From Amphiscolops sp. MND2022 (taxonomy: Eukaryota), in NCBI GenBank assembly GCA_964187785.1, contig OZ076409.1:52888001-52952000 (forward strand): DNA of 64,000 nt, in the 5' to 3' direction. The notes beneath the pieces were generated by a model. The model was not told the origin of the DNA and did no database searches. It worked only from the letters and a program-made list of their open reading frames with translations. The position numbers and the translations under genes were made by a program. Positions 1 to 50,600 of this stretch are shown here, piece after piece; positions within the stretch are counted from its first letter, which is position 1; each line of letters begins with the position of its first letter.

Positions 1-20
1 AGTTCTACATAACAACGAAT

Positions 21-9625: not shown

Positions 9626-11113
9626 ATGAAGAAGAACAGAAAGAGCTCTCACCCCGATGATTAAAACTGACACTAACCACCCAATTCCTTCTTGAAAACT
9701 TGCATAAACATTTTAATTGGGGGTTATTTATTTGATTTGTCATTTTGAAAGATGCTAAACAAATATCTTGAACAACCCTTTTTGTAATAAGTTTGCTCTA
9801 TGCATCAAAGGAGAGATAAAATGCATTAAAATTTGAGACAATTTACCTAGAAAGATCATTGCATGACTAATAGATTACGTAATGATATCGTTTTTTGAAC
9901 TCAACACCATTAAATGAACATTTGTGCTGATGACTATGCGTCATTATACGTTTTGAGCTTTGTTGAATAATCACAAACATGCCTTTTTTATAATTGAACT
10001 ATGCGGCATCCTACAGCCCGATGCCTGATGATTACTCGTCACTATGCGGACTACCACTATGCGGTACCCCGCGGTTTGATAAGTAACGTATACTCGTCAG
10101 TATGCGTTTTTAGCATGATAACCATTCAAAATGAGATATAACGTTATACATTTCAATTATTTTTCCGAGTACGCGCTTGACAGTCTCCAACGCAGTTTTC
10201 CAGGGTTTTTTTGGACCTATTCATCAGTTTTGAATGTGATATAAATATTCTGACGTAATGATGATGCTATCCTATTTTTGCCTCCCAGGCCAGCGTGATT
10301 CCTCTAAAAAGGAGTGTCATGCTCCCAATTTTTTTAAGTAAATTAACTTTAGCATAGATATTCATACCAATTTTGACCCTCACTGTGATCAGTTGCTATA
10401 ATCATCACTCTAACTAAACTGTAAAAGCAGTTTTTTCCAACATTAGCACCGTTTCTTTGAAATACCTTTTGGTATTTGGAATACTTCAAGACAATTCAAA
10501 TTCTTCCCCAACAACCAAAATACACCTTTTCGCTTGAGCAAGATGGGAAATAAGAGAAACAGAAGGTCCAGGAGACTGGCAACACCATCTCCTGACAGGG
10601 AATTGAGCGTAACACAAGTAGAAACACCTAATCCAGGTAATGTGACTTTAACTAATTCTAATGTTAATGTTCAAGAAGGTTTAGGTGAAAACAGCTCTTT
10701 AAATCAATTAACTGAACCCAGTTTACTCAACAGTGAAGTTCAAGTATGGACCCAAATAATGGAACAGAAGAATGATAGCAAAATCGAGAAAATGAGAGAA
10801 GAAATGGATAGTGAACTTGAGGCGATTTTGAGAGAAGTTAAATCAAATAAAACTGCATCAACAATGACAAACCCAAGGTCAGATTTCAACGAAATGCAAG
10901 ATTCACAACCTTTGGGATCCAAAACAGCCAAGTCTATAGGAGTTCACGCATCTAATAACGAAAACTCAGATTCTGAAAAAGACGATTTTCCTCTCAGAGC
11001 TTCTAAAATGAAAGACCTAAAGCATCCTGCGAAACCGCTATTCCGGAGCGAATCTGATGTAGATGCAACTATACATTCAGACGAAGAGTCTGATATAGAA
11101 GAGGATTATCACA
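9582..11113 (+). repeat. 3' LTR of element A (about 1.5 kb), containing TATGCG repeats and the gag N-terminal ORF from ATG 10543
   Basis: A PPT-like AAAAGAGCGGGAC precedes TGTCTCAG at 9582, and the LTR ends TTATCACA. The start is inferred by analogy to B because no 5' LTR is available. Confidence 0.65.
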
Positions 11114-12251
11114 TCAACATTTTACTATGCGGCATCCTACAGCCCGATGCCTGATGATTACTCGTCACTATGCGGACTACCACTATGCGGTACCCCGCGG
11201 TTTGATAAGTAACGTATACTCGTCAGTATGCGTTTTTAGCATGATAACCATTCAAAATGAGATATAACGTTATACATTTCAATTATTTTTCCGAGTACGC
11301 GCTTGACAGTCTCCAACGCAGTTTTCCAGGGTTTTATTGGACCTATTCATCAGTTTTGAATGTGATATAAATATTCTGACGTAATGATGATGCTATCCTA
11401 TTTTTGCCTCACAGGCCAGCGTGATTCCTCTAAAAAGGAGTGTCATGCTCCCAATTTTTTTAAGTAAATTAACTTTAGCATAGATATTCATACCAATTTT
11501 GACCCTCACTGTGATCAGTTGCTATAATCATCACTCTAACTAAACTGTAAAAGCAGTTTTTTCCAACATTAGCACCGTTTCTTTGAAATACCTTTTGGTA
11601 TTTGGAATACTTCAAGACAATTCAAATTCTTCCCCAACAACCAAAATACACCTTTTCGCTTGAGCAAGATGGGAAATAAGAGAAACAGAAGGTCCAGGAG
11701 ACTGGCAACACCATCTCCTGACAGGGAATTGAGCGTAACACAAGTAGAAACACCTAATCCAGGTAATGAGACTTTAACTAATTCTAATGTTAATGTTCAA
11801 GAAGGTTTAGGTGAAAACAGCTCTTTAAATCAATTAACTGAACCCAGTTTACTCAACAGTGATGTTCAAGTATGGACCCAAATAATGGAACAGAAGAATG
11901 ATAGCAAAATCGAGAAAATGAGAGAAGAAATGGATAGTGAACTTGAGGCGATTTTGAGAGAAGTTAAATCAAATAAAACTGCATCAACAATGACAAACCC
12001 AAGGTCAGATTTTAACGAAATGCAAGATTCACAACCTTTGGGATCCAAAACAGCCAAGTCTATAGGAGTTCACGCATCTAATAACGAAAACTCAGATTCT
12101 GAAAATGACGATTTTCCTCTCAGAGCTTCTAAAATGAAAGACCTAAAGCATCCTGCGAAACCGCTATTCCGGAGCGAATCTGATGTAGATGCAACTATAC
12201 ATTCAGACGAAGAGTCTGATATAGAAGAGGATTATCACATCAACATTTTAC
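10000..12251. repeat. Tandem duplication, 1126-bp unit (10000-11125 / 11126-12251)
   Basis: ORFs 10534 and 11660 are near-identical. The junction ...CATTTTAC|TATGCGGCATCC has 2-bp AC microhomology. Confidence 0.95.
10543..11113 (+). CDS. gag: gag N-terminal segment encoded in the LTR (MGNKRNRRSRR...EEDYH), truncated at the LTR end; copies at 11669-12239 and 14095-14665
   Basis: Basic N-terminus and a coiled segment. The frame meets the LTR end as codon+A, exactly as in B, where gag continues into the PBS. Confidence 0.6.
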
Positions 12252-12559
12252 GTTGGGCCATACGGGAACAGCATACGTTTGGGCCCTGCTCAAGTCTCAA
12301 AAATAGCAAGAGTATTTTGAAGCGTCATAGATTCTCTTTCGAATAAATTCTCAATTTCAAAGTACCAAAATAAGCCAAAGACCTTTTTGAAGGGGAGGGT
12401 GCATTATTTCCAATCATCCGCCTCCTCTTCGGTAATACACAATTTAATTCGGATATAATGTCAAAATTCGGATATAGTGCAATATTTTTGAGCCTCTGCT
12501 TCTTCTTTAGCAAAACACAATTTATTTTCATATATACCGTCAAAAGTATAAAAGTTTGA

Positions 12560-14963
12560 ACGAACATTGTATAACCAGGAGGTGTTAAAGTGGTACCACC
12601 CACTTACCCACAAAACTACAATCCAGAAGCGTCAGCATTTCGCCCACAACATAGAAATGCACATAATGACCAGGATTCCTCAGTAGGTCAAGTGTACAAT
12701 ATGGAGACCGCAGACACGCATGTTATGCCAACATTTGGAGGGGTGTCTGACAATCTCGCAACTGCCAACATGACCCCTCTGATAATCCATTTGCCACCCA
12801 GAGGAGGACCTGACACCCTACAGGAACATAACCTCCCAATCTACCCAGGTGTGCAAGGGGGCTTTCCTTTTCACGTGGTACATAGTCCGAATGTGCTGTT
12901 CATCCCAATCGACGTTAGACGAAACTTCAGGCTTTTTCCAACAGTGATGCCGAATGTAGCTGGACACTGCGACCAATGTGGAAAGACTTATGATCAAGTT
13001 GCCCTCGAGACTTTGGGAAATTATCTAGCAACCACCGCCTATGAAGGAGAGACAGTAAGAGATCGTGGTGTCCGGTCACGAGCCTTCATTGACGGGTTCG
13101 AAGCTATCCTGTTCATCTTCAAAAGAGCGGGACTGTCTCAGCCTGTCAGCTGTGCTGGGTCCGAAGTGCAGCAGTGAATGAAGAAGAACAGAAAGAGCTC
13201 TCACCCCGATGATTAAAACTGACACTAACCACCCAATTCCTTCTTGAAAACTTGCATAAACATTTTAATTGGGGGTTATTTATTTGATTTGTCATTTTGA
13301 AAGATGCTAAACAAATATCTTGAACAACCCTTTTTGTAATAAGTTTGCTCTAAGCATCAAAGGAGAGCTAAAATGCATTAAAATTTGAGACAATTTACCT
13401 AGAAAGATCATTGCATGACTAATAGATTACGTAATGATATCGTTTTTTGAACTCAACACCATTAAATGAACATTTGTGCTGATGACTATGCGTCATTATA
13501 CGTTTTGAGCTTTGTTGAATAATCACAATCATGCCTTTTTTATAATTGAACTATGCGGCATCCTACAGCCCGATGCCTGATGATTACTCGTCACTATGCG
13601 GACTACCACTATGCGGTACCCCGCGGTTTGATAAGTAACGTATACTCGTCAGTATGCGTTTTTAGCATGATAACCATTCAAAATGAGATATAACGTTATA
13701 CATTTCAATTATTTTTCCGAGTACGCGCTTGACAGTCTCCAACGCAGTTTTCCAGGGTTTTATTGGACCTATTCATCAGTTTTGAATGTGATATAAATAT
13801 TCTGACGTAATGATGATGCTATCCTAATTTTGCCTCCCAGGCCAGCGTGATTCCTCTAAAAAGGAGTGTCATGCTCCCAATTTTTTTAAGTAAATTAACT
13901 TTAGCATAGATATTCATACCAATTTTGACCCTCACTGTGATCAGTTGCTATAATCATCACTCTAACTAAACTGTAAAAGCAGTTTTTTCCAACATTAGCA
14001 CCGTTTCTTTGAAATACCTTTCGGTATTTGGAATACTTCAAGACAATTCAAATTCTTCCCCAACAACCAAAATACACCTTTTCGCTTGAGCAAGATGGGA
14101 AATAAGAGAAACAGAAGGTCCAGGAGACTGGCAACACCATCTCCTGACAGGGAGTTGAGCGTAACACAAGTAGAAACACCTAATCCAGGTAATGAGACTT
14201 TAACTAATTCTAATGTTAATGTTCAAGAAGGTTTAGGTGAAAACAGCTCTTTAAATCAATTAACTGAACCCAGTTTACTCAACAGTGAAGTTCAAGTATG
14301 GACCCAAATAATGGAACAGAAGAATGATAGCAAAATCGAGAAAATGAGAGAAGAAATGGATAGTGAACTTGAGGCGATTTTGAGAGAAGTTAAATCAAAT
14401 AAAACTGCATCAACAATGACAAACCCAAGGTCAGATTTCAACGAAATGCAAGATTCACAACCTTTGGGATCCAAAACAGCCAAGTCTATAGGAGTTCACG
14501 CATCTAATAACGAAAACTCAGATTCTGAAAATGACGATTTTCCTCTCAGAGCTTCTAAAATGAAAGACCTAAAGCATCCTGCGAAACCGCTATTCCGGAG
14601 CGAATCTGATGTAGATGCAACTATACATTCAGACGAAGAGTCTGATATAGAAGAGGATTATCACATCAACATTTTACGTTGGGGCATACGGGAACAGCAT
14701 ACGTTTGGGCCCTGCTCAAGTCTCAAAAATAGCAAGAGTATTTTGAAGCGTCATAGATTCTCTTTCGAATAAATTCTCAATTTCAAAGTACCAAAATAAG
14801 CCAAAGACCTTTTTGAAGGGGAGGGTGCATTATTTCCAAACATCCGCCTCCTCTTCGGTAATACACAATTTAATTCGGATATAGTGCAATATTTTTGAGC
14901 CTCTGCTTCTTCTTTAGCAAAACACAATTTATTTTCATATATACCGTCAAAAGTATAAAAGTT
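12560..14963. repeat. Second duplication: copy of the end of the sense ORF, the 3' LTR (13134-14665) and about 300 bp of flank
   Basis: 12560 onward matches 9008 onward (offset 3552). 14666-14963 matches 12240-12556 with a small deletion. Confidence 0.95.
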
Positions 14964-22589: not shown

Positions 22590-22931
22590 GTTGTTAACCG
22601 AATACTATATGCGGAAAAGAAACACCACAACCGGAGAGATTTCTTCTGGGCGAAACAGGCGGAAGAAGAAACACCAGAATAATTTTGAAGACGGATAATT
22701 GAAATCGAAAAAGAATGTCATTTCAACATAGTCTCGGCGGAAGAACTATTGATATCGAAGTACATGACTGCGATCGCCGATAAAAAGTTATGGGATAAAA
22801 TAATGAAAGAAAAGACACTAATTGAAGCAAATAATGGAACTAATAAAACAGGACACATACGAGAAGAACAAAAAGAACACGATTCCACAAGCACTGATAT
22901 CATCAAAGGAAAAACAAGCTATTAAAGAAGA
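22590..22931 (+). repeat. Copy of C gag segment 16320-16661 placed at the PPT/3' LTR junction
   Basis: Near-identical sequence at offset 6270, replacing the first ~20 bp of the 3' LTR. Confidence 0.9.
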
Positions 22932-32600: not shown

Positions 32601-35600
32601 GATGAAGAAAACGATCGAAATGATCAAACAAAATACCTACGAAAAGAAAAACAAGAAAAACACAATACCAGAAGCCTTGATTACAGCAAAAGAAAAACAA
32701 ATAATCAAAGAGGAACCGATACAAAGGATGGAAAAATACGGTACCAGGCCGAAAACAAGAATAACAGGAACCCGACTGTTACGACTATTTACCGGTGTTG
32801 TTTTAGATTTAGTCGCAGTGTGAATTTTGACGGGGGTAGACGTTCTTGCTACGGAGACATTCTCTGGTTCAGAGTCCGAGTCTTGAGCATTCATGTAGAC
32901 AGTCTGTTTTTTGTTTAAGGGCGCTATCAGTTTTAACATTTCCTTCTGGTTTTCCGCAAGTATTTTGGTGAGATCAGACATAATCTCTTTTCTTAATGAT
33001 GTTTTTATCTCAGCCAAGTTTTCTGGTTCTATCCTAGGGATCTTGCTAGAACTAGCTACAAGAGTTTCAGGCGGAAAGTTTTCGGTTATGGAGGTTTCAA
33101 AATCGCCAGAGACCAATTCTGCTACAGCCTTCCTTTTCTGACTTCTAGTTGTCATTTTGATTCAGAGGGAGGGAGAGAGTATCTTTGGAAAGGTTAAATT
33201 CTTCAAAGATTCGTTTTCGTTATAATAACGGAACTGAACTGATTGTTATAAGTCAAGTTGGAAAATTAACTGATTCACATGTATGTATTACATATTTATA
33301 CCTTCTCAGCATCATTTGTTCCTCACCTAAAAATTCCTAGGTATCACAAAAATCGGGTTTGTTCAACAAAAAGCGCTAATGATTCATATTATTTCAGTCC
33401 TGCGTCATAATATCAGGCATCAAAATTCCTAGTTACGTCAGCGTTCCGTAAAATTTGTTGAAGTCATTTTTGTTCAGGCGGTTCATTTCCTGTTTGTGCT
33501 TCAAAATTGCGGTAAAATAGAAGTCTAGTTTTCATTTTCATCGACGCAAGCACGCCGGCGTGATCAATTAGTCAGATTCCTAACTTGGAAGTTGAAATTC
33601 GAAGTAAAAGAATGACACTCAAAAAAATAGCAACGGAACTGTGACGGAATGTGAATATTTTATGGCCAAAGATACTTGGAAAACCAAAATGAAGAACAAA
33701 GTGATGCTGAGAAGTCTTTAGGAAACGAATAGCTTGTGTAAACGCAAATTGTTACGAACTTTACATGTATTGGGAACTCAAAACAGAACATTTGATTTTA
33801 GCATCAAGTAAATGCCACGGAAACAGTCCTTTTATCAAGACTTGTTTAGCAACTAACACACTGAGTATTCAGACTTACTGGTCTAAGAAGGCGTATAAAA
33901 ATACATCATAGCACTCAGAAGCAGATTGAGCAAAGGTAGAAAAGGAATAGGAGAGGTTATTGGAATGATTATCACTGCATCATATCAAAATTGGTACAAA
34001 TTTCAAAACAACACGAACATTACGTTCATTTCATAATCCTATCTTACAGTACAACTATTCTTTACGTAAGCTTAATCTTAAGATTCCCTAAGGTGTATAA
34101 ATTCAGAAAAGTTCTTCCAAAAGATTCATTCATTACGAAGTTTCCTAGTTGCAATTTCTTAAGTTGCTCCGTAAATGCTCCGTACGTGTTATGGTTACTT
34201 ATGGTAGAGCGGTGGAATACAATTTTAAAATCCGCTCCGTAAGTGCTCCGTACGTATTAAGATTGCTTATAGCTGAGCAGCAGTAGCAAGCGGAGTGGAA
34301 ACGGAGAGCGTAGGCGAATTCATTCTCTTCGCTTAGCTAGCAAGCGTTGCTAGGGGCAACCAAGCTTAATTCTACTGGTACCGGCTCGGATAATTCTGCC
34401 AACAAGCGACGCTATTGGTCCGTAAAAAAAGAAACGCCCGTCACCAGCTTAGTTGAGTGACGCTGTCATAACGTTGTAAACATTTACTTAAGATCACTTG
34501 ACTGCGGTATTAAGTAGATATTTAACAACTACTTTAATATTGGAATACATTTCCACTCTATTTTTGTATGTTCTTCCATTTTAGATCTCATGGGCTCCGT
34601 TGGGATCTCGGAGTTGAATGTTGTTTCTGTGTTTCATTTTAGTGTGGGGCGCCAAAATGATCCCGTTTGCAAAATTATTTAGTATTTAGATTGGAATGGA
34701 AAACTCAGAAGATAAAACCGGAAATAAAACGGCGTTGCGTGTGAAAACATTAGGCCGGAAGTTTTAGCTAGTTTAAAATCATTTCTGAAAATCTTCCGTA
34801 ACGTTTACGTTGAATTCCGTATTTGGAGAATTATTCGCGCTTATTTAATTGTACTGTAAGTAGAATTTTGATTTGATTAGTTTAATAAAGTTTAAAAGTA
34901 TTTACTGTGCCCTTGTCCATGTCCTCTGCCGAATCCCGGTATTCAATAGCAGCAAGTAAAATTACGACCGGGAGCGGGTCGTGACAGGGCCCCTCTTGAT
35001 GAGAGTGACAGGGGTAGAGCGTGGCAGTGCGGGATTTCTTTATTGTCACGGGGGGACGACCATTGTACCTTCTTGATTGGAGGGGGCCACGACCTCTTCC
35101 CGCCTTCATGTCTCTAATTTTCCTCTCTTCTTCGTCTAGTTCACGGGCTTCCTTCTCCAATCGTTCCACTTCCTCCGGACAGCATTCGGGGGGTCTAATT
35201 ATGATATTAGGGCGCAGATTTTCTTTTGCGTGTAGCCCGCGTCCACGGCCTAAGGATGCGAGGTAATTTCTGTCCTCCAAATCTAGGCTGTACAGGGCTT
35301 CCAATTCCGCTAGAGAAGGCTCATCAGGTCATTTAATTTTCCCGAGTTCGGCATTCTTTCATTCCCCATAACAGGGATATTTTCCGTTCTTTTTAGAGCA
35401 GGGGTACGCTTTATTGGGGGGGGGGTAAGCGCTGCGGTGAGTCTGGCTCTTCATAATAGTCCGTGTCAGAGTCGGCTGGCGGCAGATCGAACGTGACTTT
35501 TCCGGTTCTCCTTTTCTTTTTGGGTGTCGGTGCCGTTTCGGGCGACTCGGAGGTGGAAACCATTTGTGCATCGCTTCCGCGATAAACTTCGACGGAAGAA

Positions 35601-38600
35601 TCGCTCAAGTATCCTACCATATTGAGAGGCAGCGTTTTTATCGGTGTACTGGTCTTATTGGCTTCTTCATCTGACGAGATGTCGATAACTAGCGAATAGT
35701 TATTCATTTTAGTAGGAGAGAATACTGAGTACTATTTCGGAAAGGTTGCAGGTAGTTTGTTAGTGAGGATTTCTTGTAACGCTTCAGAAAATTGAGAAAA
35801 TTTTAAGCTGGTCAAGCTTCTGCTGAAATTGGACGACAAGTGAACGTTTTAAATTATTTCCTTTCGGAAATTTCATCGAACTTCTATTGGTCGATTTTCC
35901 GTTTTCGTTCCGGTTCGTCACGAGTTAAAGGAAACGAGTTCTTTCTTGCTGCGTTATGATTGGTCGAAATACTTGAGGGAAACTTCTAATTTTAGTTTCC
36001 GTCCTCTTTTCGGTTAATGGCGTAATGACGTCACAGAATTACATCTGTAGTCCGTGATCTTTTAATAATTTCCCAAGTTCTTCTTGACATTTCTTGGTGG
36101 ATTTTTATCCACTGTAAGGTCTTTGGAAACGTTTTGTTCCGTCTATGCCATAATAGGCTTTTATTGGAGTTGAAGATAGGGTGATTTTCATTTATGTAGG
36201 AATGATGTTATTAATTTCCTCCCAATTAGTTGCGTTTACGTAACGTAATTCTTCTTCTTTGTGATTTTCGTTCTTTTTTTTTAAATTGCTGTGGGCATCT
36301 TTGCTGTCGTTTCTTTCTATGGATGACGAAACTGCTCCGCTCCAAGGCACCGTCACCGGATTTGTCAGTGGCAATGAAACCAATTTTTGTTATACTGACG
36401 ATGACGTGATCTTTTCGGAGGTGGAGGCAGTGGTTACTTCTTCAGGTTGGTAAAATCTTTCTGACTTTCATGGGTAATTGGACTGTTGTTTTGGTGATCA
36501 GCCTTTTCAGTCTTACCCGAATACCTGACGCGTCAAACCAGATCTTGATTTTCAGTAACTCAACCTGGCGCTTCAACTGCGGTTGTTTCCGTAGCCACTG
36601 CGGGAGTTCTTTCGACAGAGGCTACTGTTCTGCCATCAGTTTCTACTATCTTGTCTTCTAAGCCTTCTAGTGCTGTTAACGAAATGTTAACCACTGTATT
36701 GACTAGCGCTGAGCCCGACGATTCATTTCCAGTCGACTCTTCTCCTGTCATTGTTGGTCCGAGTACGCGAGTTGTTGCTGCAAGTAGCGATAGTGAGTCT
36801 CAAGAAGGTGAGACAGATCCCCCGCCAATAGAAAAACCCGTTGATAGATTCGTTTTTGATGGTATATTTCTGGTATGTGGGCGGGGTGTACGAAAATTAT
36901 TTTTGTTGTTGTAGATATGAGGGATGCTGAGACGTATGGACCTTCCAACATTTGTGTGACGCCATCGAAACGGGCAAAGAAGGTTGTTATCGCTCCGCCA
37001 TCGCCTCCTCCCTTGGTGCATGCTTCTACTGGTTGGCAAAGTTAGTTCTAATATTGTTTTTATCTTTCGTTTCATTCTTTGAATTGGGGAGAGTGTTAGT
37101 TGCCCATTGGTTTGGTTTGTTTGGGGATGTCCTATTTTTTGGTACTCGTTTTCATTGGGTGTTGATGTTGTGTAGGTCACGATGATGATCAGTTGTATGG
37201 TGTCGGCGGTGTGACGTTGAGTCCCCAGGATGTGATGCGATTGGGTCAGCAACTTGTGGAAGAGGTGACGGAAAGTGCTACGCTGGTTATTCAAAACGGT
37301 TAGCGTTTGCGTTTTCCCTGTAATTCGGGTATTACTTTGTTGTTTGGTGAGGGTTTTCGTTCATTTTCAGTGTAGTGTGTATAATCTTTATCCCCTTCGT
37401 GTCTTGTTTGTAGAGTTGTAACAGTTCAGTGGGAAGGTAGAAAAACGTCTGGCCAAGCGGACAGTGAAGACATACGGGAATCGCAACACGTTGCATCGTC
37501 GTATGTTGAGTCGACATCCTGCTTTTCCTGATTTCGTGACAGGCTCCACGACTGGTGAGGGAACTCACTTCCACTGTCGGGTATGCAAGCGTGATGTGGC
37601 CATGAAAGCTCAGGGCTCTGGAGAGTTTAGCAGACATTTCCGTTCTGATGCTCACTGGTTTAAGGACGTTACTTATCGCGTCCATATGGGTCTTCAGGTG
37701 CTCAACAGGTTGATGGAGCCGATGGAACTGTCAGCAAGTCAACTGGCAGACTATAAGTCTCGACCATTTTGTGATCTGAGCGGGGAGTATCCGTTCCCTG
37801 AAGATCTATTGCCCAAGCATTCAAAAGCGGAGTCAAACGTGCCCTACATGACCTTGGTTTCTTGTTTTTGCAAATTCTTGCGGAATGGTTGTGATCTTGA
37901 TTATCTTCGTCGTCTGTGGGGCCACTTCCGAGCAACATTGGGCGACCGAGAACCTTGCTTTCCTTTACGATGGAGCCGTTCGGAGACCGTGGTGAGTTGG
38001 TTTGGGTATTGTTATTGTTTATTTCCGTCATGTATCCGGGTGAGAGAAAACAGAAAGGGATGGGGGAATGTCTGTTGTAGTTGTTTTGAAAGTAGGGTCT
38101 CGTTTGTGTTTTAGTCATTCCTTTGTCGGGGGCTGGCTCCGCGAGTTCTTCGTCTGATGTTGAGTGACGTCAAATCTTTTAAAGAGTACGGGATGCAGTT
38201 TGAGAAGTCTGGGTGCATAGAACGTTGCTATGTTCTTTGTTAGGATGGATTGAATTTAAAGAAGATTTGTGTGGGAGATCAGTCCTTGGATCAAAAAATG
38301 CCCGAACCCGAGTTGCTCCCATTGGCACGTGTAGCGAGCTGCCTAGAGGGACAGCAATTACCGGTGTCAGTTCTTGGCGCTAGCCCTTCCCTCATTCGCA
38401 TGTTAGACGCGAACAGGACGGATGATCGGCGGTTTCTGTCATGGCAGTCGTTTGATGAGGAGGTGTTTCTCCATTGTTTCCGTCAGTCTCATCAGGACAT
38501 TTTTGGAATGATTGAAGTGACGACTGCATTGGAGTATGTGATTCATCGATTGAAAGGGGCTTTGTATGAGGATTGGACAGAAGACAGGCCTCTTCTTCGA

Positions 38601-41600
38601 TCGTGTATACGGGACGGCTCCGTTGCATTCTGCAATCTTCGAGAGGTCCTGGGCGATTTAATCGAACTGTGGCCTTCCATACGTCCTTACATTCGCTACA
38701 CAGGACATCCTCATTTTAAGAGTGTTGCTGATAGGGTGAGTACCGTCGTATTATTTGTTTATTTCGGTCTTGTGTCATTCCTTTGTTCTCTCCTGTGCTC
38801 TGCTGTGGTATATATGATCTTGGAATGATGGTATAATTTATCCATTTTAGCTGCGCGGCACAGACTTCGAGTTAATCTCCGATAGTCTCATTGTCTATCG
38901 TTTCGGCTTCCTTCGACTGCTTTTAGACTCCTGTAAGTATGGTGATCTTTCGTTATAATTGTTCTCTTTCGACTGTTTCTGATTGTGGTAGTGTATTGGC
39001 TGATGTTTCTTGTCGTTGTGGATATGCTATTGTATCTGGTTTCTATTGGCTGTTTCGTTTTGATCAAGGATTCTGCTTCTTTTCATTAGTTCATGTGTTT
39101 AGATTACTTCAATTTTGAGAGATTGCGTCAGTGCCGGAGAGATTACGGGTTTCATGGTTACGGTGAGGTCTGCAACTTCGTTTACTGTCTGCTGATGCGA
39201 ACCCGTAAGCTGTCTGATTTGCCTGGTATCCATGAGTGGGAAAGTTATATGGATATTTCGAAACTTTCTTATTTCAACGCTATTTCCATGGAGGAATTCC
39301 TGATGGACAGTGATTTTGGTCGCGAGCTGGTCACTGTCAAGACGGGTGAGATGCGGGAATTCCGCGTTAAATGTCGTGAGTGTATTGATCGGCTCGTGTC
39401 TTTGATCCTGACTAGTACAGCTGTGACTTCTGGCGTTTCGCGAGGACTTTATGCTTTCTGTCCGGAGATTATGTTGGGCGGCGACGATCACCACATTTTC
39501 GAGTTGTTTGGCTCTCTTTGTGATTTGTTCAGATCCTGCCACGTGATGTCTTCGGACGGCTTGAATGCTGCTGTTGCTGAGTTCAAGAGCTATGTGATAG
39601 AGAAACGCAGGCATTACGAGGATGCGACATGTGCTGCGAGTGAGATTCCTGACGTGGTTCAGTTTCTGTTGCGGGATTTTGCCTTCCAGTCTCGGACTCA
39701 TGTATTTCGATTGTTAAAAATATGTTGTCTGGTGGTTGGAGTGCCAAAAAGTAACCTTCCTGCAGTTACTATTGATTTGGGTGGTAGCGCGCTGAGTCCG
39801 GCAGTGGTTCAGGATTGTGTATTGATAGTGCAGTCTCACATCGTCAGTCCGAGTTTCAATCCTCGATTGTTCTTTTCAGCTTCGTTGCTTGTTGCAGTCC
39901 GGGAAGCTATTGCAGAGTCAGGCATTTTCTTCAGAGTTGCCGATTTGATGTTTGGAAAGATTTTTGCTCTGGCGATATGGAGTCTTTTGTTGGGCGTTAT
40001 CGATCTTTGTATAAGAAGTATTTAATGGGGCGACAAAGGGAGTACGACACTTTCTATGTGGAAAGCAACAAGGCGAATCGGCGTTCTCGCGAGAGTCAGT
40101 GTTCAAGTTCAACCGAGGCCGGAAGTGCTACAAATTCTGTTGTCGGTTCCAAGAAGGCATCGTCAAAGTCTGGGAAAGTAAATGCGTCTACTACTCGTTC
40201 ATCAGCAAAAGTTGTGAGTAAGGAAGATAGAACTGTTGCGAAAAAGAGTGGTGGTGGCAGTGTGTCTAGAAGGTCAAAGAAAGATAAGGGCAGTGCTTCT
40301 GATGATTCCGATGCAGTCCACAAGTTGAAGAAGACATCTTCTAAGAATTAGTGGATAACTGATGCTGATTTGATTTCTTGATGAATTATATCTTTTGTTA
40401 TACTTGGTATTTGTATTCTTTGTTTTATGATTTGATTGATTTCTACAAGTCACATCAGTCATTCGTTATAGTTACGTAGTTTTAGTAGATTGCAAAAATT
40501 GACGTAGTCATTCCGGTTCGGTTTGATATGCTGATTTTTGTCTAGTCTTGAGCTGATCGTAGTTCTCCCGTAGTGACTGAGTCGAGGATTCTGAAGTCAG
40601 GATTTACGTTAGGTCGTGGATTAGGTCTCAAATTATATCGCCCTACTTTCCTAGGATTATATCCAATGACTATAGGCGGTAGTTCGGGTGTTTTGGGAGG
40701 GCTTTCTATAGGTGGCGGTGTAAAAATATAGGGGTTGTCGCTGACGTCCAAGTTAAATGACGTTATGTTGTCGGAGGGTGTTTTCCCTTCTGCAGAGTTT
40801 TCATTTGTGGCTGTTTGAGCCACGTCATTTTCCGTTATATCTTCGCTTGTGGTTGTTTTAACCACGTCATTTTCCGCTGTAATTTCATTTGTGATTGTTT
40901 TAACCACATCATTTTCCGCTGTAATTTCGTCGTTTTCTGTTGTGTCTGTGATTTCTGCAACTGTGGCTTCTTCGGTGGTGTTTTCCGTATTGTTTCCGAA
41001 CAGAACTCCTCCGAATTCGGTTTCCCAAGCTTGCGCGTACCAATCATTGTGGGTTGTTTTAACCTCTGGATCTGGAAGGTAATCTTCCCTTCTGACTGTT
41101 ACGTCAGGTACTCGCTGATTGGGAGCATATAGCCTTAGGCGAATTCTATGGAGGGTTTGAGTGTACCTAGTTCCTGTGCGACGTACGACGTAGTTATTGT
41201 TCGAAAGTACTTTGATTACTATGTAGGGTCCAGTCCAAATACAATCTTTAAAGGCAAATTTCATTGACTGGTTGTCTGCCTTTGGATTGAGGACGTAGCA
41301 GTAGTCGTTGACCTTGAGCGGTGTAGTTGTTGCTTTCTTGTCATAGTACTGTTTGTGTTTGAGGTAAGACTGCATTAGGTTCTCTTTGGCAGCTTGGTGT
41401 ATTTCGGCTATTTGTTTCTGTAATTGGTCCGTTAATTCTTCGTTGCTATCTTTTTCCCAGTTAGGTTTCAATCCAAGTTTTATGTCCAAAATGTTGTACG
41501 GGATGCGTCCGTGAAACACTGTTGTAGGTTCACAACCTAGGCTTTCATGGTAGCTTGTATTGTAATTCATGACTGCAATCTGGACGTATTTGTGCCACAT

Positions 41601-44600
41601 GGAACGTCGTTCTCCCGTTGATATCTTTAAAGAGGTTTCCAAAGAGGCATGGGTCCTTTCTAGGATGCCAATTGTTTGGGCGTGTTTCGTCGATGCGTGG
41701 TTTATCCGTATATCCAGTGTTTGTGCTATTTGGTTGACGACTTCTGACCTGAATTGTGATCCTTTGTCCGTTAGAATGACGGTCGGTAGGTAGCAGTGTC
41801 GTGTCATGACGTCTATTATGCATCGTGCGACTGTTTTTGCTGTCATATCCTGAGTCGGATAAGCGAAAAGGTAACGCGAAAAAACATCCATCATCGTTAT
41901 GATGTGTTGGTATCCATTTGAGGAAGGTAAGTTTGGTAGGATGTCCACTTCTAGGCAATCTTCTGGTCCCATTGTGAATTCAGTGTTGCTTAGCATTTTG
42001 GGACGTATCTGTCTCGTGTCTATTCTTTTATTGGCGATGCAATCCTGACAACTGGTTACCCAAGCTCTGATTTTTCGTGCAAGACCCGGGAAGTAGTATT
42101 TCGCTCTGCATTCTTGTATCATTTTGGTGATTCCTGGGTGTTTATTTGTTTTCCCATGTAGAGTGGACAGGAGTTCTGGGACTAGGTGTTTTGGAATTAT
42201 AATTTGGTTATGTGTGACTGTTCCGTCTTCTCCATAATACTTTCGCATCAGAACTCCATCTTTCATTATGATTCTTTCTTCGTGGCGTAGTAGGTTTCGT
42301 CCTCGTGGTTCAGTTTTGAGAAGGTGCTTGTCATATTCTTCGTGTGAGATCCGTTGTTTCAGTGCTTTGAGGAGGGGATCTGCATCTTGTTCGTTTCTGA
42401 TCCGTGCATTTTCCTTAATTGCACAAAAAGAGTAGACTGCGGAGTTGAGTGGTATCTTGATGACTTCGGTTACCTTTGTTGATAGTTCTCTTTCATGTTC
42501 ATCTAGGGCACGTCGTTTGCTGAATGCCTTTCGGGCAAAAATTTCTTGTTCAGATTCATCTTCTTCATCTGGTAGGAAGAAAAGTTGTTCCTCGTCAGCT
42601 ACATCTGATGATTGTAGGTTAACTTCAATTGGGGACGTTAGGATGTCGTTCCGTAGTTTAAGTTGTACCTTTTCTTTCGGTGTAAGTTCAAGTCTTGAGA
42701 GAAAATCTGCTGCTGTGTTTTGGGAGCCTGCTACGTGCATGATCCGGAATTTGAACTGAAGTACGTAGTCGCAAGCATTCCACAGTGCAGGTGGTGTTGT
42801 TTTCGTCTGAAAGAATCTGGTTACTGAGCGGTTGTCCGTTAAGACCAGAGTCGGAATTGTTGTTTCCCATAGTATATGGCTGTATTCAAGGAAGGCGTGG
42901 TAGATTGCTAAGAATTCCTTGCAGTAAATGGACATTTTCAGTTGTGCAGGTGAAAAAACTCGTGATCCGAACGCTACTGGGGCGAAGGTTTTCCGTTTGG
43001 AGAGTATTTTGCGTTCGTCGTTCTCCTCGATCATGAGGGCGTAGCCTGATGCACGAAAGCTTGCATCCGTCATTAGAACGTACTGTTTTCCTGCTATGGG
43101 CTGTCTGAGTGCAAGTCCACAAGCTTCCGCTAAACTGACGTTAATTTCCTTAAAGTTATCGACAAGTTCTTCTGAAATTCTGATTTTGGTTTCTGCTTTG
43201 AGAAGTTCGTACATGCCGATGAGTTTTTCTGACAAGCGCGGTATGTAGTTGCGGTAGTAGTTAACAAAGCCAATGTATTTTTGAACTTGTTTTTTGGATT
43301 TGGGGAAACGGACTTTGGTGAAGAAATTTTTGACTTTTTGATCTTGCGGGGCTACGCCGTCGGGGGTGATGGTTCGGCCAAGGAATTCGATTTGGGTTAC
43401 TCCAAAATGGCATTTTTCGATGGTTAGTTTTAATCCTGCTTTTCTAATGCATTTGAAGACTGCTCTGATGTTCTGTATGAGCTGTTCCGTTGTGTTTGCG
43501 GCAATGCCAATGTCATCTACGTTATGTGCACATTGGTCGGCTTTGATACCTGAGTCCAGATACTCTCGCATGAAGCTCGAAAAAGCTGATAGGGCTCTGC
43601 TTAGTCCTTGTGCCAGGCGACGGTAGGCGAACGTCCTACTAGCAAAATTAAAAGCAAGTAACTCTACTGACCTTTGATCTGCCATTTGAAGGCAGTGATA
43701 CGCCTGGGAGCCGTCAAGCTTGCAGAACAGTTTTTTCCCTGCTAGGTGTTGTGCCGCATCTGAGAGGGTGCTGACAGGGTGGTTGTTGTTGAAGTAGTCA
43801 TCTGCTATAAGTGCGTTGATTTTGCGCAGATCCACCAGTAGTCTCAGTTTGCCGTTGGGTTTCCGTTGTGCAAATATGGGACTGGCATACTTGGAGAAGG
43901 GGAGTGTCGTGATGATTCCGTATCGATGCATGAGGGCCAGTTCCACAGTCAGGTCTTCTTTGAGGTTGATTGGGACGGGTAGGCTCTGTGTGTAGACTGG
44001 TTTGTCATCTTGTGGTGTCAGGCTGACTTTGAATTGTGTGTTCATCCCTATGTCTAGCCGGTATCGAGCGAAGATGTCGTTGAATTCGACAATGGTGTCC
44101 TCGAGGTTTTCACGGTCTTTGTTCGCAATCTGTGAATCTGTCCATTTCAACATGGAAAGAAATTTGTTTCGAGACTCTTCGTTTTCGGTTGGGTCAAGTT
44201 TTTCTAGCTCGGCAAGGTCTCGCAATTCTTTCAAGATTCGCATTTGTATGGGCGAATGTTCCTGTTCGTTGCCGGGGTGTTCTGGGGTCGGAAACCAGAA
44301 TTTCTCTTCATTGTCGTCGGGCCGCTCTACTTGCATTAGTGCATTGATGTACGTGACCGCATCGACATGGTCAGTGAGGAGGTTTAGGGCGGCTATGTCA
44401 ACTGGGCGGCTCATCTTCGTTTCTTCGGGTTTCAGGATTTGCAGTTCTGCCATTTTGTTATTGGTGGCTATTGTGTATGGGAAATCCGTAGTGTTGGCGA
44501 TTTTTATTGGTATCTTTTTGTCTCTGGCTGTTGTAATTGCTGGAGCTACTATTACCTTCGCGCATTCGTCGAATTGTGGTAGGGGTTGTATAGTGCCCGT

Positions 44601-47600
44601 TATTGAGTGTTCGATACTCACAGGGATTGTTGCGTAGATGATTCGGGTAGAGTGCGCTGGGATTGTATGCTTGGCTTCGGTCTTTATCGTGATGGGTTTG
44701 GGATTGCACTTTTGTCTTTCGTCTGTGAGCGCCATCGTTATTTGGATCTTAGGAAAGTCAATGGTTCCCTGTGCCGTGTCAAGGATTGCGGCATGCTTAC
44801 GTAAGAACGCTAATCCAATTATAGGGAATGACGTTTGATTCATGATGATGAATGTTTCTTCAAAAGTGTAATCCCCTATTTTGAAACGTAGGGTGTACGT
44901 GGCAAGTGGTTGTTCTAATTCGGCGTTGGCATACTGCACTTTGAAAGGGGGTGGGGGTGCCTTATTGACGATGCACTGACTGGCATGCTGTCGGAGTTTT
45001 TCAGCGTCCCTTTCGCTAATAGCGTTAATGTACGCACCTGAGTCGACTAAAGCGTCGATTTTGACCGTGTTGAATTCGACTGGTAGGAAAAGCATTCGTT
45101 TTTTCTTCTTGAGCGCGATGGAAGACATTAACGGGAAGTAGTCGTCGTCTTTGTCATGTTGGATGAATTCCTTGATGGTGTCTAGATCTTCAGGCAATTT
45201 TGAGGGACATTCCGTGATTTCTACGTCGTCATTCATTAGTGTTGTGACGGGCGCGGTTTTTGGAGGGGTCACTGAAGGATCAGCATTTTCTCGTTTTCGT
45301 TTTTCTTGATGCGCCCATATGGTTTTGTCCTCGACGCAGATGATGTTCTCAGCGTCTATTGGTGTGGACGTGATGGTGACGGGTACTGTTGGGGATGGTG
45401 TTGTTCTCTTGAGAATTGGCGATGGTGGTGATGGTAGGTCCATGATTTCTGTGGATTGAGCCTGGGAGTTTGAGACTTGTATTTTGAAGGAGAGTTTGTT
45501 AGTATCATAAATGGTTGGTTCATCCCAGGGATCGCATCTGTAGTCTCTATCATAGATGTAGATACGTTCAGTTTTTGATTCTGGTAAGGGTCGCTTGAGT
45601 GTTGCGTAGTTATCTGGTGACTCTGTTATCCATTGAGGTAGCGGTGTTGGGTCGTCTGGATGTCTGGCATTGTGTCGGAGTATCATGCCTACGTTCCATC
45701 GGCGTTGCCAGTCCTGACTTGGTTCTTCGTTACACTCTGTGAAAAAATTTTCTTCGTACCTATTTGGGGGGTCTTCGATGGTGTACGCCCTCGCGTCTAC
45801 TTTGTCCCCGAAGCGTAGGCGCGGCGACTTCAGTTTTTTGCTTGGTACGACGTCGTAGGTACGGGTTGTTCGTCAATCTTGTTTGTTGGGATAGTGAACT
45901 CACGTTTGCGTTTCCTGGGGTCATTTGCCGCATTGGCTCCGTCCCAGCAATTTTCGGTTTTGTGCATTTTTCCACAAGTAACGCATTTGGGTTTAGCTGT
46001 ATCTGTTGGTTTGGTGTCTGTGGTACTTGTTTTTGTGGCGTAGTACCTGTCTTTGCGGAGGCGACGGCATTGTGCCTTGTAATGTCCGTATTTCCCACAG
46101 TGGAAACAGTAACCTCTCTGCTGTTTGTCTTTCTTATCGTCCGCCACTGCTGCGTCCACGGTGTTGAGGGGGACTAGGGTGGTTTCATCAGGTGCTCCTA
46201 GCCCGTTGAGTCGCATTTCACGTTCAATGTGTAAAACAATGTCGTTATAGGGCTTATCTTCTAGGTAGGCTCTGTTAAGGATCTTTTTGACGTGATCCGG
46301 CATTTTAGCGTATATGGCTTTGTCGATGAACTTCTGGGCTTCTGAGCCAAACGCTTCTTTTGCGGTTTTTTGTAACGCGTCAAGAAATTCGTGGAGTTTT
46401 TGTTTGGTGGGGTCGAAATGTAGCGCATCCCACTCACATCTCGCTTTGGCGGATGATTGGAAATCACCAAAGCGACGTTTGAATGCCGTTATGACTTCTT
46501 CTAGGTTGTCTTTTTTAGTGTCATCTAGATTACAATACGCTTGTAGCGCGTTTCCTCGTAGGAGTGAATGGAAGTAGTTGATCTTTTGTATCTCGGTTAA
46601 GTGAGGGTACATTTTGATGTTATTTCGGAATAGGTCCTCAAAAAGTTCAAACTTTTCGAACTTACCATCGAAGACTGGAAGTGAAGCAGTGAGTGCTTTC
46701 GGCATCGGGAGTAGATTGGTAGATGGAAATGTTTGCGGTTGTGGCGCGAACAGTATTTTAGAAGTGGAAGGACGATCTTTTGTTTGTTCGTTGGATGCGC
46801 GTTGTTGTTTCGATCTTTTCGTGGGTTGGTTGGTAGAGTCATTGAGGACTCCTGTCACCATGTTACGACTATTTACCGGTGTTGTTTTAGAGTTAGTCGC
46901 AGTGTGAATTTTGACGGGGGTAGACGTTCTTGCTACGGAGACATTCTCTGGTTCAGAGTCCGAGTCTTGAGCATTCATGTAGACAGTCTGTTTTTTGTTT
47001 AAGGGCGCTATCAGTTTTAACATTTCCTTCTGGTTTTCCGCAAGTATTTTGGTGAGATCAGACATAATATCTTTTCTTAATGATGTTTTTATCTCAGCCA
47101 AGTTTTCTGGTTCTATCATAGGGATCTTGCTAGAACTAGCTGCAAGAGTTTCAGGCGGAAAGTTTTCGGTTATGGAGGTTTCAAAATCGCCAGAGACCAA
47201 TTCTGCTACAGCCTTCCTTTTCTGACTTCTAGTTGTCATTTTGACTCAGAGGGAGAGAGAGAGTATCTTTGGAAAGGTTAAATTCTTCAAAGATTCGTTT
47301 TCGTTATAATAACGGAACTGAACTGATTGTTATAAGTCAAGTTGGAAAACTAACTGATTCACATGTATGTATTACATATTTATACCTTCTCAACATCATT
47401 TGTTCCTCACCTAAAAATTCCTAGGTATCACAAAAATCGGGTTTATTCAACAAAAAGCGCTAATGATTCATATTATTTCAGTCCTGCGTCATAATATCAG
47501 GCATCAAAATTCCTAGTTACGTCAGCGTTCCGTAAAATTTGTTGAAGTCATTTTTGTTCAGGCGGTTCATTACCTGTTTGTGCTTCAAAATTGCGGTAAA

Positions 47601-50600
47601 ATAGAAGTCTAGTTTTCATTTTCATCGACGCAAGCACGCCGGCGTGATCAATTAGTCAGATTCCTAACTTGGAAATTGAAATTCGAAGTAAAAGAATGAC
47701 ACTCGAAAAAATAGCAACGGAACTGTGACGGAATGTGAATATTTTATGGCCAAAGATACTTGGAAAACCAAAATGAAGAACAAAGTGATGCTGAGAAGTC
47801 TTTAGGAAACGAATAGCTTGTGTAAACGCAAATTGTTACGAACTTTACATGTATTGGGAACTCAAAACAGAACATTTGATTTTAGCATCAAGTAAATGCC
47901 ACGGAAACAGTCCTTTTATCAAGACTTGTTTAGCAACTAACACACTGAGTATTCAGACTTACTGGTCTAAGAAGGCGTATAAAAATACATCATAGCACTC
48001 AGAAGCAGATTGAGCAAAGGTAGAAAAGGAATAGGAGAGGTTATTGGAATGATTATCACTGCATCATATCAAAATTGGTACAAATTTCAAAACAACACGA
48101 ACATTACGTTCATTTCATAATCCTATCTTACAGTACAACTATTCTTTACGTAAGCTTAATCTTAAGATTCCCTAAGGTGTATAAATTCAGAAAAGTTCTT
48201 CCAAAAGATTCATTCATTACGAAGTTTCCTAGTTGCAATTTCTTAAGTTGCTCCGTAAATGCTCCGTACGCGTTATGGTTACTTATGGTTGAGCGGTGGA
48301 ATACAATTTTACAATCCGCTCCGTAAGTGCTCCGTACGTATTAAGATTGCTTATAGCTGAGCAGCAGTAGCAAGCGGAGTGGAAACGGAGAGCGTAGGCG
48401 AATTCATTCTCTTCTCTTAGCTAGCAAGCGTTGCTAGGGACAACCAAGCTTAATTCTACTGGTACCGGCTCGGATAATTCTGCCAACAAGCGACGCTATT
48501 GGTCCGTAAAAATAGAAACGCCCGTCACCAGCTTAGTTGAGTGACGCTGTCATAACGTTGTAAACATTTACTTAAGATCACTTGACTGCGGTATTAAGTA
48601 GATATTTAACAACTACTTTAATATTGGAATACATTTCCACTCTATTTTTGTATGTTCTTCCATTTTAGATCTCATGGGCTCCGTTGGGATCTCGGAGTTA
48701 AATGTTGTTTCTGTGTTTTCATTTTAGTGTGGGGCGCCAAAATGATCCCGTTTGCAAAATTATTTAGTATTTAGATTGGAATGGAAAACTCAGAAGATAA
48801 AACCGGAAATAAAACGGCGTTGCGTGTGAAAACATTAGGCCGGAAGTTTTAGCTAGTTTAAAATCATTTCTGAAAATCTTCCGTAACGTTTACGTTGAAT
48901 TCCGTATTTGGAGAATTATTCGCGCTTATTTAATTGTACTGTAAGTAGGATTTTGATTTGATTAGTTTAATAAAGTTTAAAAGTATTTACTGTGCCCTTG
49001 TCCATGTCCTCTGCCGAATCCCGGTATTCCATAGCAGCAAGTAAAATTACGACCGGGAGCGGGTCGTGACACCGACCATGCAGATTCTGCAACGCACCGA
49101 ACTGGAGCCCAATACACAAATGCCCCGCACAAGACTCAAATTGTAACAACTGCGGAAAGAAAGGACACTACGCACGAGTATGTAAACAAAGAATGAAGAA
49201 CAACCGAACAGTGAAAAAACTTACCGAAGAAGAAGAAATAGAACCGAATGAATCAATCATTGAATCGGATGAGAGTATATATCACATAGAAGAAATAAAG
49301 AAGATCGTAGAACAACAGAAACACTACACAGCAAAAATGAAAATAAATGGAACACCAAAAGAATTTATAATTGACACCGGATCCCCAATAACAATAATGC
49401 CACTAGACGAACAAATAATGAAGAAGACCGAATCCAGAAAATAACAAACCGATATCAAGACGTGAACAAAAACGAAGTAAAACTCCGGGGGAAGATACCG
49501 GTAGACATGGAGTACGACAATAACAAACAAAAGATGGAAATACTAATTACCGAAAGAACGGATATAACACCATTCTTGGGTATGGACTGGATGAAAAATT
49601 TCAAATTGACAATCGGAAGAATACAATTAACCGAACCCAATCAGTCGGAAAAAGAAAAAGTAATCAAAAAGTTTCCGGACCTATTCGAAAACAACCGAAC
49701 AAAAAAGATACCGAAATAAATATACAATTGAAACCCGGACACTACCCGGTAAAACAAAAAGCGAGATTCCACTACACCTACAAGAAGATGTAGGACGAGA
49801 ACTTGAAAAACTAATAAAAGCCGGACATCTAGAAAAAATAAACAACGTGGATGAAGACTGTTTTGTATCACCGGTAGTAATAACAGTAAAGAACGATAAA
49901 TCGGTAAAAATAGCATTGGACTCCCGAAAACTAAATGACAGTTGCATTAAACGGAGACCACACAGGCCGAACATGGAAGAATTATTAAACCAAATTTCGA
50001 TGGAAATTTCACGGGACCGAACACTACAACTATTCATGTCAAAAATTGACTTAGACTACGCATACGGACAAATGAAACTTTCCGAAGAAACAAGCCGACA
50101 ATGTGTATTCGTAATTACCGGAGAAAAATTTAGCGGATAATACAGATTCAAAAAAGAGTTTTACGGACTTGCCGATCTCCCCACAATCTTTCAAGGAAAA
50201 ATTGACCGAACATTAGAATACAGCACACCGGCATGGCTAGATGACATCATAGTAGTAACACGCGGAAATAAACAGGAACACGAGAAGAAACTATTTGATG
50301 TACTATCCAAACTCGAAAAAGCCGGATATCGGGCAAGTAGAAGAAAATCGGAATTCTTCCTAAAGCAGACCAAATGGCTGGGACATGAAATCGACGAGAA
50401 CGGAATAAAACCGAATGAAGAAAAAGTCGAAGCCATACAAAAGCTGAAGTCACCGAACAATACAAAAGAACTGAAATCATTTCTCGGCGCAATACATTCT
50501 TTAGCAAAATTCCTACCGAAACTTTCGGAAAAAATAGACAGACTGAGAAAATTGCTGAAAAAGAATGAACCATGGATATGGGAAGAAGAACAAGAAAAAG

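Follow-up and report, generated by a model that had tools for sequence, protein, structure and literature searches.

Long terminal repeat (LTR) retrotransposons are usually taken to encode gag and pol only, and sometimes env. HBZ of human T-cell leukaemia virus type 1 (HTLV-1) lies close to the 3' end on the strand complementary to gag-pol, codes for a protein and is transcribed independently of the 5' LTR. VANC of the Arabidopsis VANDAL DNA transposons is a fast-diverging DNA-binding anti-silencing protein that acts on its own family. The present analysis concerns two Ty3/Gypsy elements, A and B, and a two-gene accessory module that they carry between pol and the 3' LTR, in a 64,000-nucleotide stretch of the genome of the animal Amphiscolops sp. 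MND2022 (assembly GCA_964187785.1, contig OZ076409.1, positions 52,888,001 to 52,952,000, forward strand; this whole stretch is called the window). Matches to the nuclear-receptor zinc finger numbered 43 in this 1.07-Gb genome, and there was none to the chlorophyll a/b-binding family, as befits an animal. Antisense additional open reading frames (ORFs) between pol and the 3' LTR (aORF-3R) are described, in the available parts of PMC7264820 and PMC11963269, from the plant Ty3/Gypsy elements Grande of maize (gene23), RIRE2 of rice, Retand of Silene and PvRetro13 of Phaseolus. For gene23, an upstream promoter of its own and nuclear localisation are reported, and the function of these aORFs is given as unknown, with a regulatory role suspected (PMC7264820, available part). 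In Botrytis cinerea and Sclerotinia, Boty-like Ty3/Gypsy elements carry an antisense gene, brtn (Zhao et al. 2011, as related in the available parts of PMC7264820 and PMC8365987). The antisense promoter of HTLV-1 HBZ is placed in the 3' LTR (PMC7264820, available part).

Compared by layout and not by sequence, the antisense gene of the module agreed with the plant aORF-3R in position and orientation, in its presence in most family copies and in its lack of similarity to known proteins. It differed from them in its animal host, its seven exons, its length of ~1015 codons and its divergent sense partner ORF (ORF3). The word 'intron' is absent from the available text of the plant aORF review (PMC7264820). 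Fungal brtn has the same antisense placement between pol and the 3' LTR, but the gene described here encodes a CxxC...H...H finger within a ~1000-residue protein with a putative RNase H-like core and is accompanied by ORF3; common descent of the two is unlikely. HBZ is likewise an opposite-strand coding gene near the 3' end of its element; its promoter, however, lies in the 3' LTR, whereas here the antisense start codon lies ~1.3 kb upstream of the 3' LTR, beside an internal promoter-like gap. To our knowledge, HBZ and the antisense gene of this lineage have no sequence relation, and we know of none between VANC and the accessory proteins. VANC belongs to a different class of elements and is alike only as a model of mode of action; the co-variation of protein and target sites that is typical there was not seen here between the finger gene and the start of the LTR.

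The initial annotation had not recognised the module as a described system. Antisense genes between pol and the 3' LTR are known in plants and in fungal Boty elements, and to that extent the remark did not hold; the animal case, the ~1000-codon gene of seven exons and the paired ORF with a SUMO-interaction motif (SIM; SUMO, small ubiquitin-like modifier) were not found in the literature. Literature searches returned no animal example and no retrotransposon-encoded SIM protein; a Repbase or Dfam entry may exist. In the available text of two surveys of animal elements, 'antisense' occurs once, for small RNAs only (PMC5408684), or does not occur (PMC13524379). The module is an animal variant of a known layout, in which the antisense gene is larger and has a second gene as its partner.

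Element B is a complete Ty3/Gypsy LTR retrotransposon of 16,295 bp on the minus strand of the window. The range of 34882-49071 in the initial annotation captured a real element but left out its 3' LTR, the full span being 32777-49071. The accessory region of B, from 40541 down to 34987, took up 5.5 kb between pol and the 3' LTR and was composed of the following parts:

34882..35731, minus strand: sense ORF3 of B; ATG at 35707, SIM-like VIDISSDEE at 35689-35663, end ~100 nt inside the 3' LTR
35708..36318, no strand assigned: divergent gap, candidate bidirectional promoter, 611 bp between the two accessory start codons; TGACGTCA at 36026-36033, CCAAT boxes (sense strand) at 35959-35963 and 35886-35890
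36319..36445, plus strand: antisense gene, exon 1, starting with ATG
36556..36807, plus strand: antisense gene, exon 2, Ser/Thr/Pro-rich
37176..37298, plus strand: antisense gene, exon 3
37414..37991, plus strand: antisense gene, exon 4, with a basic patch and a CxxC-x16-H-x5-H zinc finger
38115..38735, plus strand: antisense gene, exon 5, RNase H-like topology with weak support
38851..38932, plus strand: antisense gene, mini-exon of 82 nt, restoring the reading phase between exons 5 and 7
39103..40351, plus strand: antisense gene, last exon (7), all-helical domain and Lys/Ser-rich tail

That these are a real and selected pair of accessory genes of the element is highly probable. The best explanation overall, held at about an even chance, is an accessory two-gene module that is permanently carried by a high-copy Ty3/Gypsy lineage of ~16 kb in an animal genome and whose products are nuclear regulators.

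The antisense gene of B is convergent with pol, its stop lying 190 nt from the pol stop, and has seven exons separated by six GT-AG introns of matching phase. In the window copy, exon 4 has a private TAA at its third codon, and the last exon is frameshifted, leaving a frame of 311 codons vs ~425 in most other copies. In the well preserved locus L002, exon borders were directly readable, and removal of the six GT-AG introns (110, 359, 118, 122, 116 and 170 nt) resulted in one stop-free frame of 1015 codons. The same seven-exon model resulted in 1010 codons in L014, a copy 98.8% identical to B. The mini-exon alone resolved the phase, and its peptide was kept in all six B-type copies examined. 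A direct splice from exon 5 to the last exon was rejected, with phases mismatched in every B-type copy compared. Database ORFs related to exon 5 started just upstream of the same acceptor and ended a little beyond the same donor, which would fit use of these splice sites there as well. With the A lineage, single-intron solutions were obtained for each junction, but several per junction. No longer database proteins were found as full-length spliced relatives at an expectation value (E) up to 0.001, which is weak evidence. As regards orientation, the introns would survive retrotransposition because they are on the strand opposite to the genomic (sense) RNA and hence are not splice signals there.

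Element A extends on the plus strand from window position 1 to ~15000, and its parts were in the same order as those of B:

3..2111, plus strand: element A pol, 3' part (RNase H, integrase), cut by the window start
2774..6713, minus strand: element A antisense gene, decayed; ORF pieces 6609-5929, 5807-5373, 5388-4741 and 3892-3320, zinc finger near 5892
8393..9625, plus strand: element A sense ORF3; SIM-like VIDISSNSGDE at 8618, interrupted in frame by one stop codon (9020-9022)
9998..14963, plus strand: element A rearranged 3' end; LTR pieces 9998-11124, 11124-12556 and 13550-14963, and a repeated internal piece 12560-13549 equal to 9008-9997

The layout that the initial annotation had described for A and B (pol, a convergent antisense multi-exon gene, an intergenic gap and a sense ORF) was found in both elements, and the order of pol, converging antisense ORFs and SIM ORF was also present in 13 of 13 further genome copies, or 15 of 15 elements with A and B included. 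These further copies were picked at graded identity from matches to the last antisense ORF of B and A, and the presence of the last exon in them is therefore by construction. Identity between A and B was 49.6% over 700 amino acids (aa) of pol, 34% over 38 aa of the zinc-finger stretch (E 1e-6), and 21% over 182 aa of the antisense last exon (E 6e-6). The antisense proteins of A and B could be aligned in three exons, namely the finger exon, the last exon and exon 5, and the C-R-V-C...H..S..H columns were invariant in the multiple alignment of A and B fingers. The finger pattern was intact in 13 of the 15 elements and was not found in L005 and L009, which were among the more fragmented copies. 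Searches of the genome with the last-exon proteins scored 127 and 150 matches, from 7279 and 3728 first-look candidates respectively, at identities from 100% down to 56%; by hand count, 100 of the 127 and 132 of the 150 were stop-free. Inverted repeats flanking the module were absent from B (0 pairs), and only short imperfect pairs, away from the module edges, were present in A. The presence of the module in both diverged lineages and all 15 elements, with no flanking inverted repeats in B, agrees with the earlier view that it is not a one-off independent insertion.

Ratios of nonsynonymous to synonymous substitutions (dN/dS) were calculated by the Nei-Gojobori method, pairwise among the fetched loci. 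In the antisense last exon, dN/dS was 0.139 for L001-L002 (dS 0.43), 0.10-0.23 in 15 further computable pairs, in most of which synonymous sites were close to saturation, and 0.29 in L006-L007, a pair of low divergence (dS 0.08). The proportion of synonymous differences (pS) exceeded the correction limit in all six A-type pairs and in four B-type pairs, in which the proportion of nonsynonymous differences (pN) was 0.17-0.34. In ORF3, dN/dS was 0.17 (L003-L007), 0.17 (L006-L007) and 0.27 (L004-L007); other pairs had pN of 0.25-0.47 vs saturated pS, and the near-identical L003-L006 pair was uninformative. For pol, dN/dS was 0.06-0.30 in 19 of 20 computable pairs and 0.55 in the short pair L010-L013 (237 codons). 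Both accessory genes are constrained as proteins by purifying selection, and ORF3 is the faster evolving. The selection proposed in the initial annotation is in line with these ratios, which were not near 1 in the last exon (0.10-0.23 in 16 of 17 computable pairs) or in ORF3 (0.17-0.27).

Two pairs of elements were mosaics. Between L001 and L004, identity was 94.8% in pol, 68.6% in the antisense gene body, and 91.4% in the segment composed of exons 1-2, the gap, ORF3 and the start of the LTR. Between L003 and L006, the corresponding identities were 92.4%, 65-70% and 95.2%. In the swapped part of the antisense gene, synonymous divergence was saturated, vs 0.13-0.15 in pol; the difference is therefore ascribed to recombination between deeply diverged versions of the gene and not to fast evolution in place. 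Vertical inheritance, as proposed, thus applies to the whole module but not to the gene body, which has passed between elements with 91-95% identity in pol and ORF3. In being exchanged in this way, the accessory cassette is much like an env gene. In both pairs, one border of the swap was close to the pol stop and the other in or close to intron 2 / exon 3, and exons 1-2, the gap and ORF3 travelled together with pol.

The product of ORF3 was mostly hydrophilic and 240-350 residues long. In undamaged B-type copies, ORF3 had 244-278 codons and ended ~100 nt inside the LTR; in A-type copies it had 340-350 codons and a conserved C-terminal block of ~110 residues. A sense ORF that crosses the polypurine tract into the LTR, as initially proposed, was present in B, in which ORF3 crosses the tract and continues for ~100 nt into the 3' LTR, but not in the window copy of A, in which ORF3 stops short of the LTR. 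The sole feature common to A-type and B-type ORF3 was, at the N-terminus, a V-[IV]-D-I-S-S motif that runs on into acidic residues and that we take to fit the SUMO-interaction consensus (V/I-V/I-x-V/I hydrophobic core, then Ser/acidic). Each of the 15 elements had the motif once and only once, and 47 of the 72 database relatives of A-type ORF3 had it as well; among the 25 relatives without it, 21 were judged to be calls starting downstream of the motif and four were one-residue variants. From this motif match, ORF3 is SIM-like and a putative SUMO binder. No membrane-spanning stretch was found in six ORF3 proteins, in which the maximum 19-residue Kyte-Doolittle mean was 0.52-1.14, with the transmembrane threshold at ~1.6. 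ORF3 is not env-like because it has no hydrophobic stretch able to span a membrane, and it starts with an acidic motif, unlike the signal peptide of env; the earlier finding of no env-like pattern was borne out.

In the youngest B subfamily, a run of poly-C decided the frame of ORF3 (window 35400-35430, minus strand; loci L014-L018). It had 7, 10, 11, 12 and 12 C in five of six copies, the sixth being out of register. Only the copy with 11 C stayed in frame beyond the run, and the older copy L004 had an interrupted, in-frame version. The length variation may reflect assembly error, slippage in reverse transcription or a frame switch.

The gap between the two accessory start codons was ~400-600 bp wide across the lineage. 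The palindromic TGACGTCA was present in the gap of eight of eight B-type copies, with CCAAT boxes ~70 and ~140 nt further on, and these sites were kept between subfamilies whose gaps otherwise align poorly. In A-type gaps, CCAAT was mostly present, in the opposite orientation. Judged by its motifs, the gap would be an internal bidirectional promoter.

The antisense protein, of ~1015 residues, had a disordered N-terminus, a basic patch, one CxxC-x16-H-x5-H finger, a domain of predicted RNase H-like topology, a helical domain of ~330 residues and a Lys/Ser-rich tail. None of the database relatives had a name, and some of them were 97-98% identical to copies in this genome and may be from the same species. 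A metagenome scan with a narrowed alignment gave 68 pattern matches, none of which was confirmed as a relative. The exon-5 model had a strand-strand-strand-helix-strand-helix core (mean predicted local distance difference test score, pLDDT, 63). Its best structural neighbours were all RNase H-like folds, at Z 6.8-5.0 over ~80 residues, a level that the tool calls common; they included actin/Hsp70/sugar-kinase lobes, Pelota, RuvC domains and retroviral integrase cores (integrase Z 5.0-5.5). In Foldseek, the Hermes hAT transposase was at rank 4 for the exon-5 model (E 0.045, template modelling score, TM, 0.22), which was not significant. The last-exon model was all-helical (mean pLDDT 68.6, ~90 for residues 20-210) and had no structural match; the best Foldseek E was 0.77, and the best Z in the wide search was 5.0, mostly from a single long helix. 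Language-model look-alikes of the last exon to RabGAP-TBC (0.85-0.87) were below the level at which the tool calls a lead and were set aside, having neither Pfam nor fold support.

The look-alikes of the finger exon (0.89-0.91) included the GTF2IRD2, SPIN-DOC-like and FAM200B clusters, which we take to be hAT-derived host genes. Domesticated hAT derivatives of the Buster/Charlie type (GTF2IRD2, FAM200, ZBED5, SPIN-DOC-like) have the same order of parts as is predicted for the antisense protein, from an N-terminal single zinc finger through an RNase H-like core to a long helical region, the likeness being drawn from language-model look-alikes only. The antisense protein differs from them in having neither a match to their Pfam domains, nor a significant structural likeness to Hermes, nor conserved catalytic acids. 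Pfam gave no match in the accessory exons to zf-C2H2_12, zf-BED, the FAM200-ZBED5 RNase-like domain or the hAT dimerisation domain. In alignments of 26 exon-5 and 27 last-exon sequences, none of the columns that were invariant or close to it was acidic, and the antisense protein is therefore not an active DDE transposase. Taken from models and look-alikes, the origin of the protein in an inactivated hAT-like transposase is possibly correct and is only a lead.

In the proposed mechanism, both accessory products would be nuclear and act for the benefit of the element; a nuclear role is suggested by the basic patch, the finger, the basic tail and the SIM-like motif. Expression of both genes would start in the internal gap and would not depend on the 5' LTR. 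For the zinc-finger protein, possibly a descendant of an inactivated hAT-like transposase, the proposed role is that of a regulator that binds nucleic acids, and for ORF3 that of an adaptor in contact with SUMO-modified host chromatin or silencing factors. Together, the pair would promote transcription of the element or shield it from silencing. A regulatory or anti-silencing function, as predicted from these motifs, is possible, at somewhat less than an even chance; among the domains of the two proteins, none of known regulatory function was identified.

Several results weigh against a module whose products are nuclear regulators. At E up to 1, Pfam had no family for any accessory exon, and at E up to 10 it had none in common to the 26 exon-5 homologues. 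A profile search against the sequences of solved structures returned no match (best E 0.16 with exon 5 and 0.44 with the last exon). The structural matches of exon 5 were below the reliable level (Z under 8) with moderate model confidence, and Hermes was missing from the 50 best rows by Z. The zinc-finger proteins of L001 and L004 were very different while their gap, ORF3 and LTR start were 91% identical, which would not be expected of a regulator that simply co-evolves with sites in the LTR of its element. In the window copy of B, broken accessory genes lie beside open gag and pol, and the module is therefore not needed in cis for persistence in the genome. The ORF3 of that copy was split over frames at the poly-C run and by two further small deletions, and in the youngest B subfamily ORF3 was interrupted in six of six copies, mostly at a poly-C run of 7-12 C. 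TGACGTCA was present in none of seven A-type elements. Neither of the hexamers AATAAA and ATTAAA occurred in the ~500 nt that follow the antisense stop of B, or of six of the seven loci checked. Transcription, promoter and introns of the module are predicted from sequence.

The two proteins could instead be cofactors of replication or integration that import or tether the pre-integration complex, with the SIM-like motif of ORF3 steering integration to SUMO-marked chromatin and the finger protein serving as a nucleic-acid chaperone or tether. Selection and conservation, as described above, count equally for such cofactors; ORF3 lies co-linear with the genomic RNA, its end being in the LTR, the RNase H-like neighbours of exon 5 include integrase cores (Z 5.0-5.5), and the lack of co-variation between finger protein and LTR fits a role independent of sites in the element. 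However, neither protein is tied to gag or pol, and the antisense gene needs its own promoter, outside the particle-forming polyprotein. This explanation is unlikely, if not very much so.

Somewhat less probable still is a fully specified counter-defence pair, with an inactivated DNA-transposase-like finger protein and a SUMO-binding adaptor that would be expressed from an internal bidirectional promoter and would blunt SUMO-dependent heterochromatin or small-RNA-guided silencing, deeply diverged versions of the finger gene being shuffled among near-identical elements through an arms race between host and element. If the products do interfere with SUMO-dependent silencing, they would add to the few known cases of counter-defence encoded by an element in animals.

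It could also be the antisense transcript that matters and not its protein: transcription from the internal promoter toward pol would, together with the genomic RNA, yield double-stranded RNA or small-RNA precursors that tune the element. The antisense gene does converge on pol, the two stops being only ~170-280 nt apart, read-through into pol could occur where no canonical polyadenylation hexamer lies within ~500 nt (B, six of seven loci), and RNA-level roles are discussed for plant antisense aORFs (PMC7264820, available part). A role of the RNA only, however, leaves unexplained a frame of 1015 codons that is open only after six introns are removed, dN/dS of 0.10-0.23 in 16 of 17 computable pairs with synonymous sites saturated in most, and finger residues conserved across lineages whose pol is 50% identical; it is improbable. 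Least probable is a hAT-like DNA transposon or host gene that landed in an ancestral element and was copied along without benefit, to which the weak hAT-like leads (look-alikes and the Foldseek Hermes match) and the decayed accessory genes beside open gag and pol in the window copy of B could point, but which predicts drift over the A-B divergence (dN/dS near 1, lost frames), whereas 100 of 127 and 132 of 150 matches had kept an open frame, accessory dN/dS was within the range of pol, no inverted repeats flanked the module in B, and neither exon 5 nor the last exon had an invariant acidic residue, so that the protein is not an active transposase.

Antisense extra genes have so far been reported in plants and in one fungal group, none of them with a known function. 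The selected two-gene module is a tractable case, in a high-copy animal lineage with many open copies and two selected accessory genes, for which an exact seven-exon model, a short candidate promoter and one mutable SIM-like motif are at hand. It also shows a route by which an intron-rich gene can persist in a reverse-transcribed element, namely on the opposite strand.

The remaining parts of element B were as follows:

32772..32776, no strand assigned: target-site duplication CCGAC, 5 bp, with a second copy at 49072-49076, on both flanks of B
32777..34986, minus strand: 3' LTR of B, 2210 bp, TG..CA ends, 99.0% identical to 46861-49071
34990..34997, minus strand: polypurine tract AAGAGGGG, adjoining the 3' LTR, inside ORF3
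40542..45872, minus strand: pol frame of B, 1776 codons, open, overlapping gag by 43 nt in another frame
45830..47245, minus strand: gag frame of B, 471 codons, open; DUF1759/Retrotrans_gag and CCHC knuckle signals (Pfam)
46844..46860, minus strand: primer-binding-site-like sequence (candidate, by position), starting TGG directly after the 5' LTR, inside the gag frame
46861..49071, minus strand: 5' LTR of B, TG..CA ends, containing the gag start codon

The LTR pair of B was 99.0% identical over 2211 aligned columns (21 mismatches, 1 gap). The gag ATG, at 47239, was 379 nt inside the 5' LTR, counted from its inner end, and each LTR piece of element A likewise carried a gag N-terminus, of ~230 codons in the A type; the LTR does encode the gag N-terminus, as first noted. 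The gag frame of B (window 46844-47239, minus strand) read through the LTR end and the primer-binding-site-like sequence, and the first ~126 gag codons are thus carried by both LTRs. In pol of B, the Pfam domains were in the order Asp_protease (residues 259-365), RVT_1 (670-835), RT_RNaseH (929-1035), Integrase_H2C2 (1226-1282) and rve (1303-1394). The C-terminus of pol (window 40650-40900, minus strand) had a Glu/Asn/Thr-rich tail with near-repeats of a 12-residue unit and then a proline-rich stretch, with no family match.

Element B was inserted within another, distantly related Gypsy-type element, whose pol was 25% identical to that of B and had the Pfam domains RT_RNaseH and Integrase_H2C2. 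A BEL/Pao identity for this interrupted element was dropped, the Pfam domains being of Gypsy type.

At the 3' end of element A (window 9008-14963), a truncated piece of LTR was followed by a complete LTR, a second copy of a 1-kb internal piece that holds the ORF3 end, and a further LTR, with identities of 98-99.5% throughout; this looks like an LTR-internal-LTR tandem produced by unequal recombination. At window 17750-21494, a unit of 1.87 kb was present in tandem duplicate at 99.9% identity, with a strong AT skew (0.35-0.39), in a region 61-79% identical to the element interrupted by B (49205-50375). The repeats at 16320-16661 and 22590-22931 were 98% identical.

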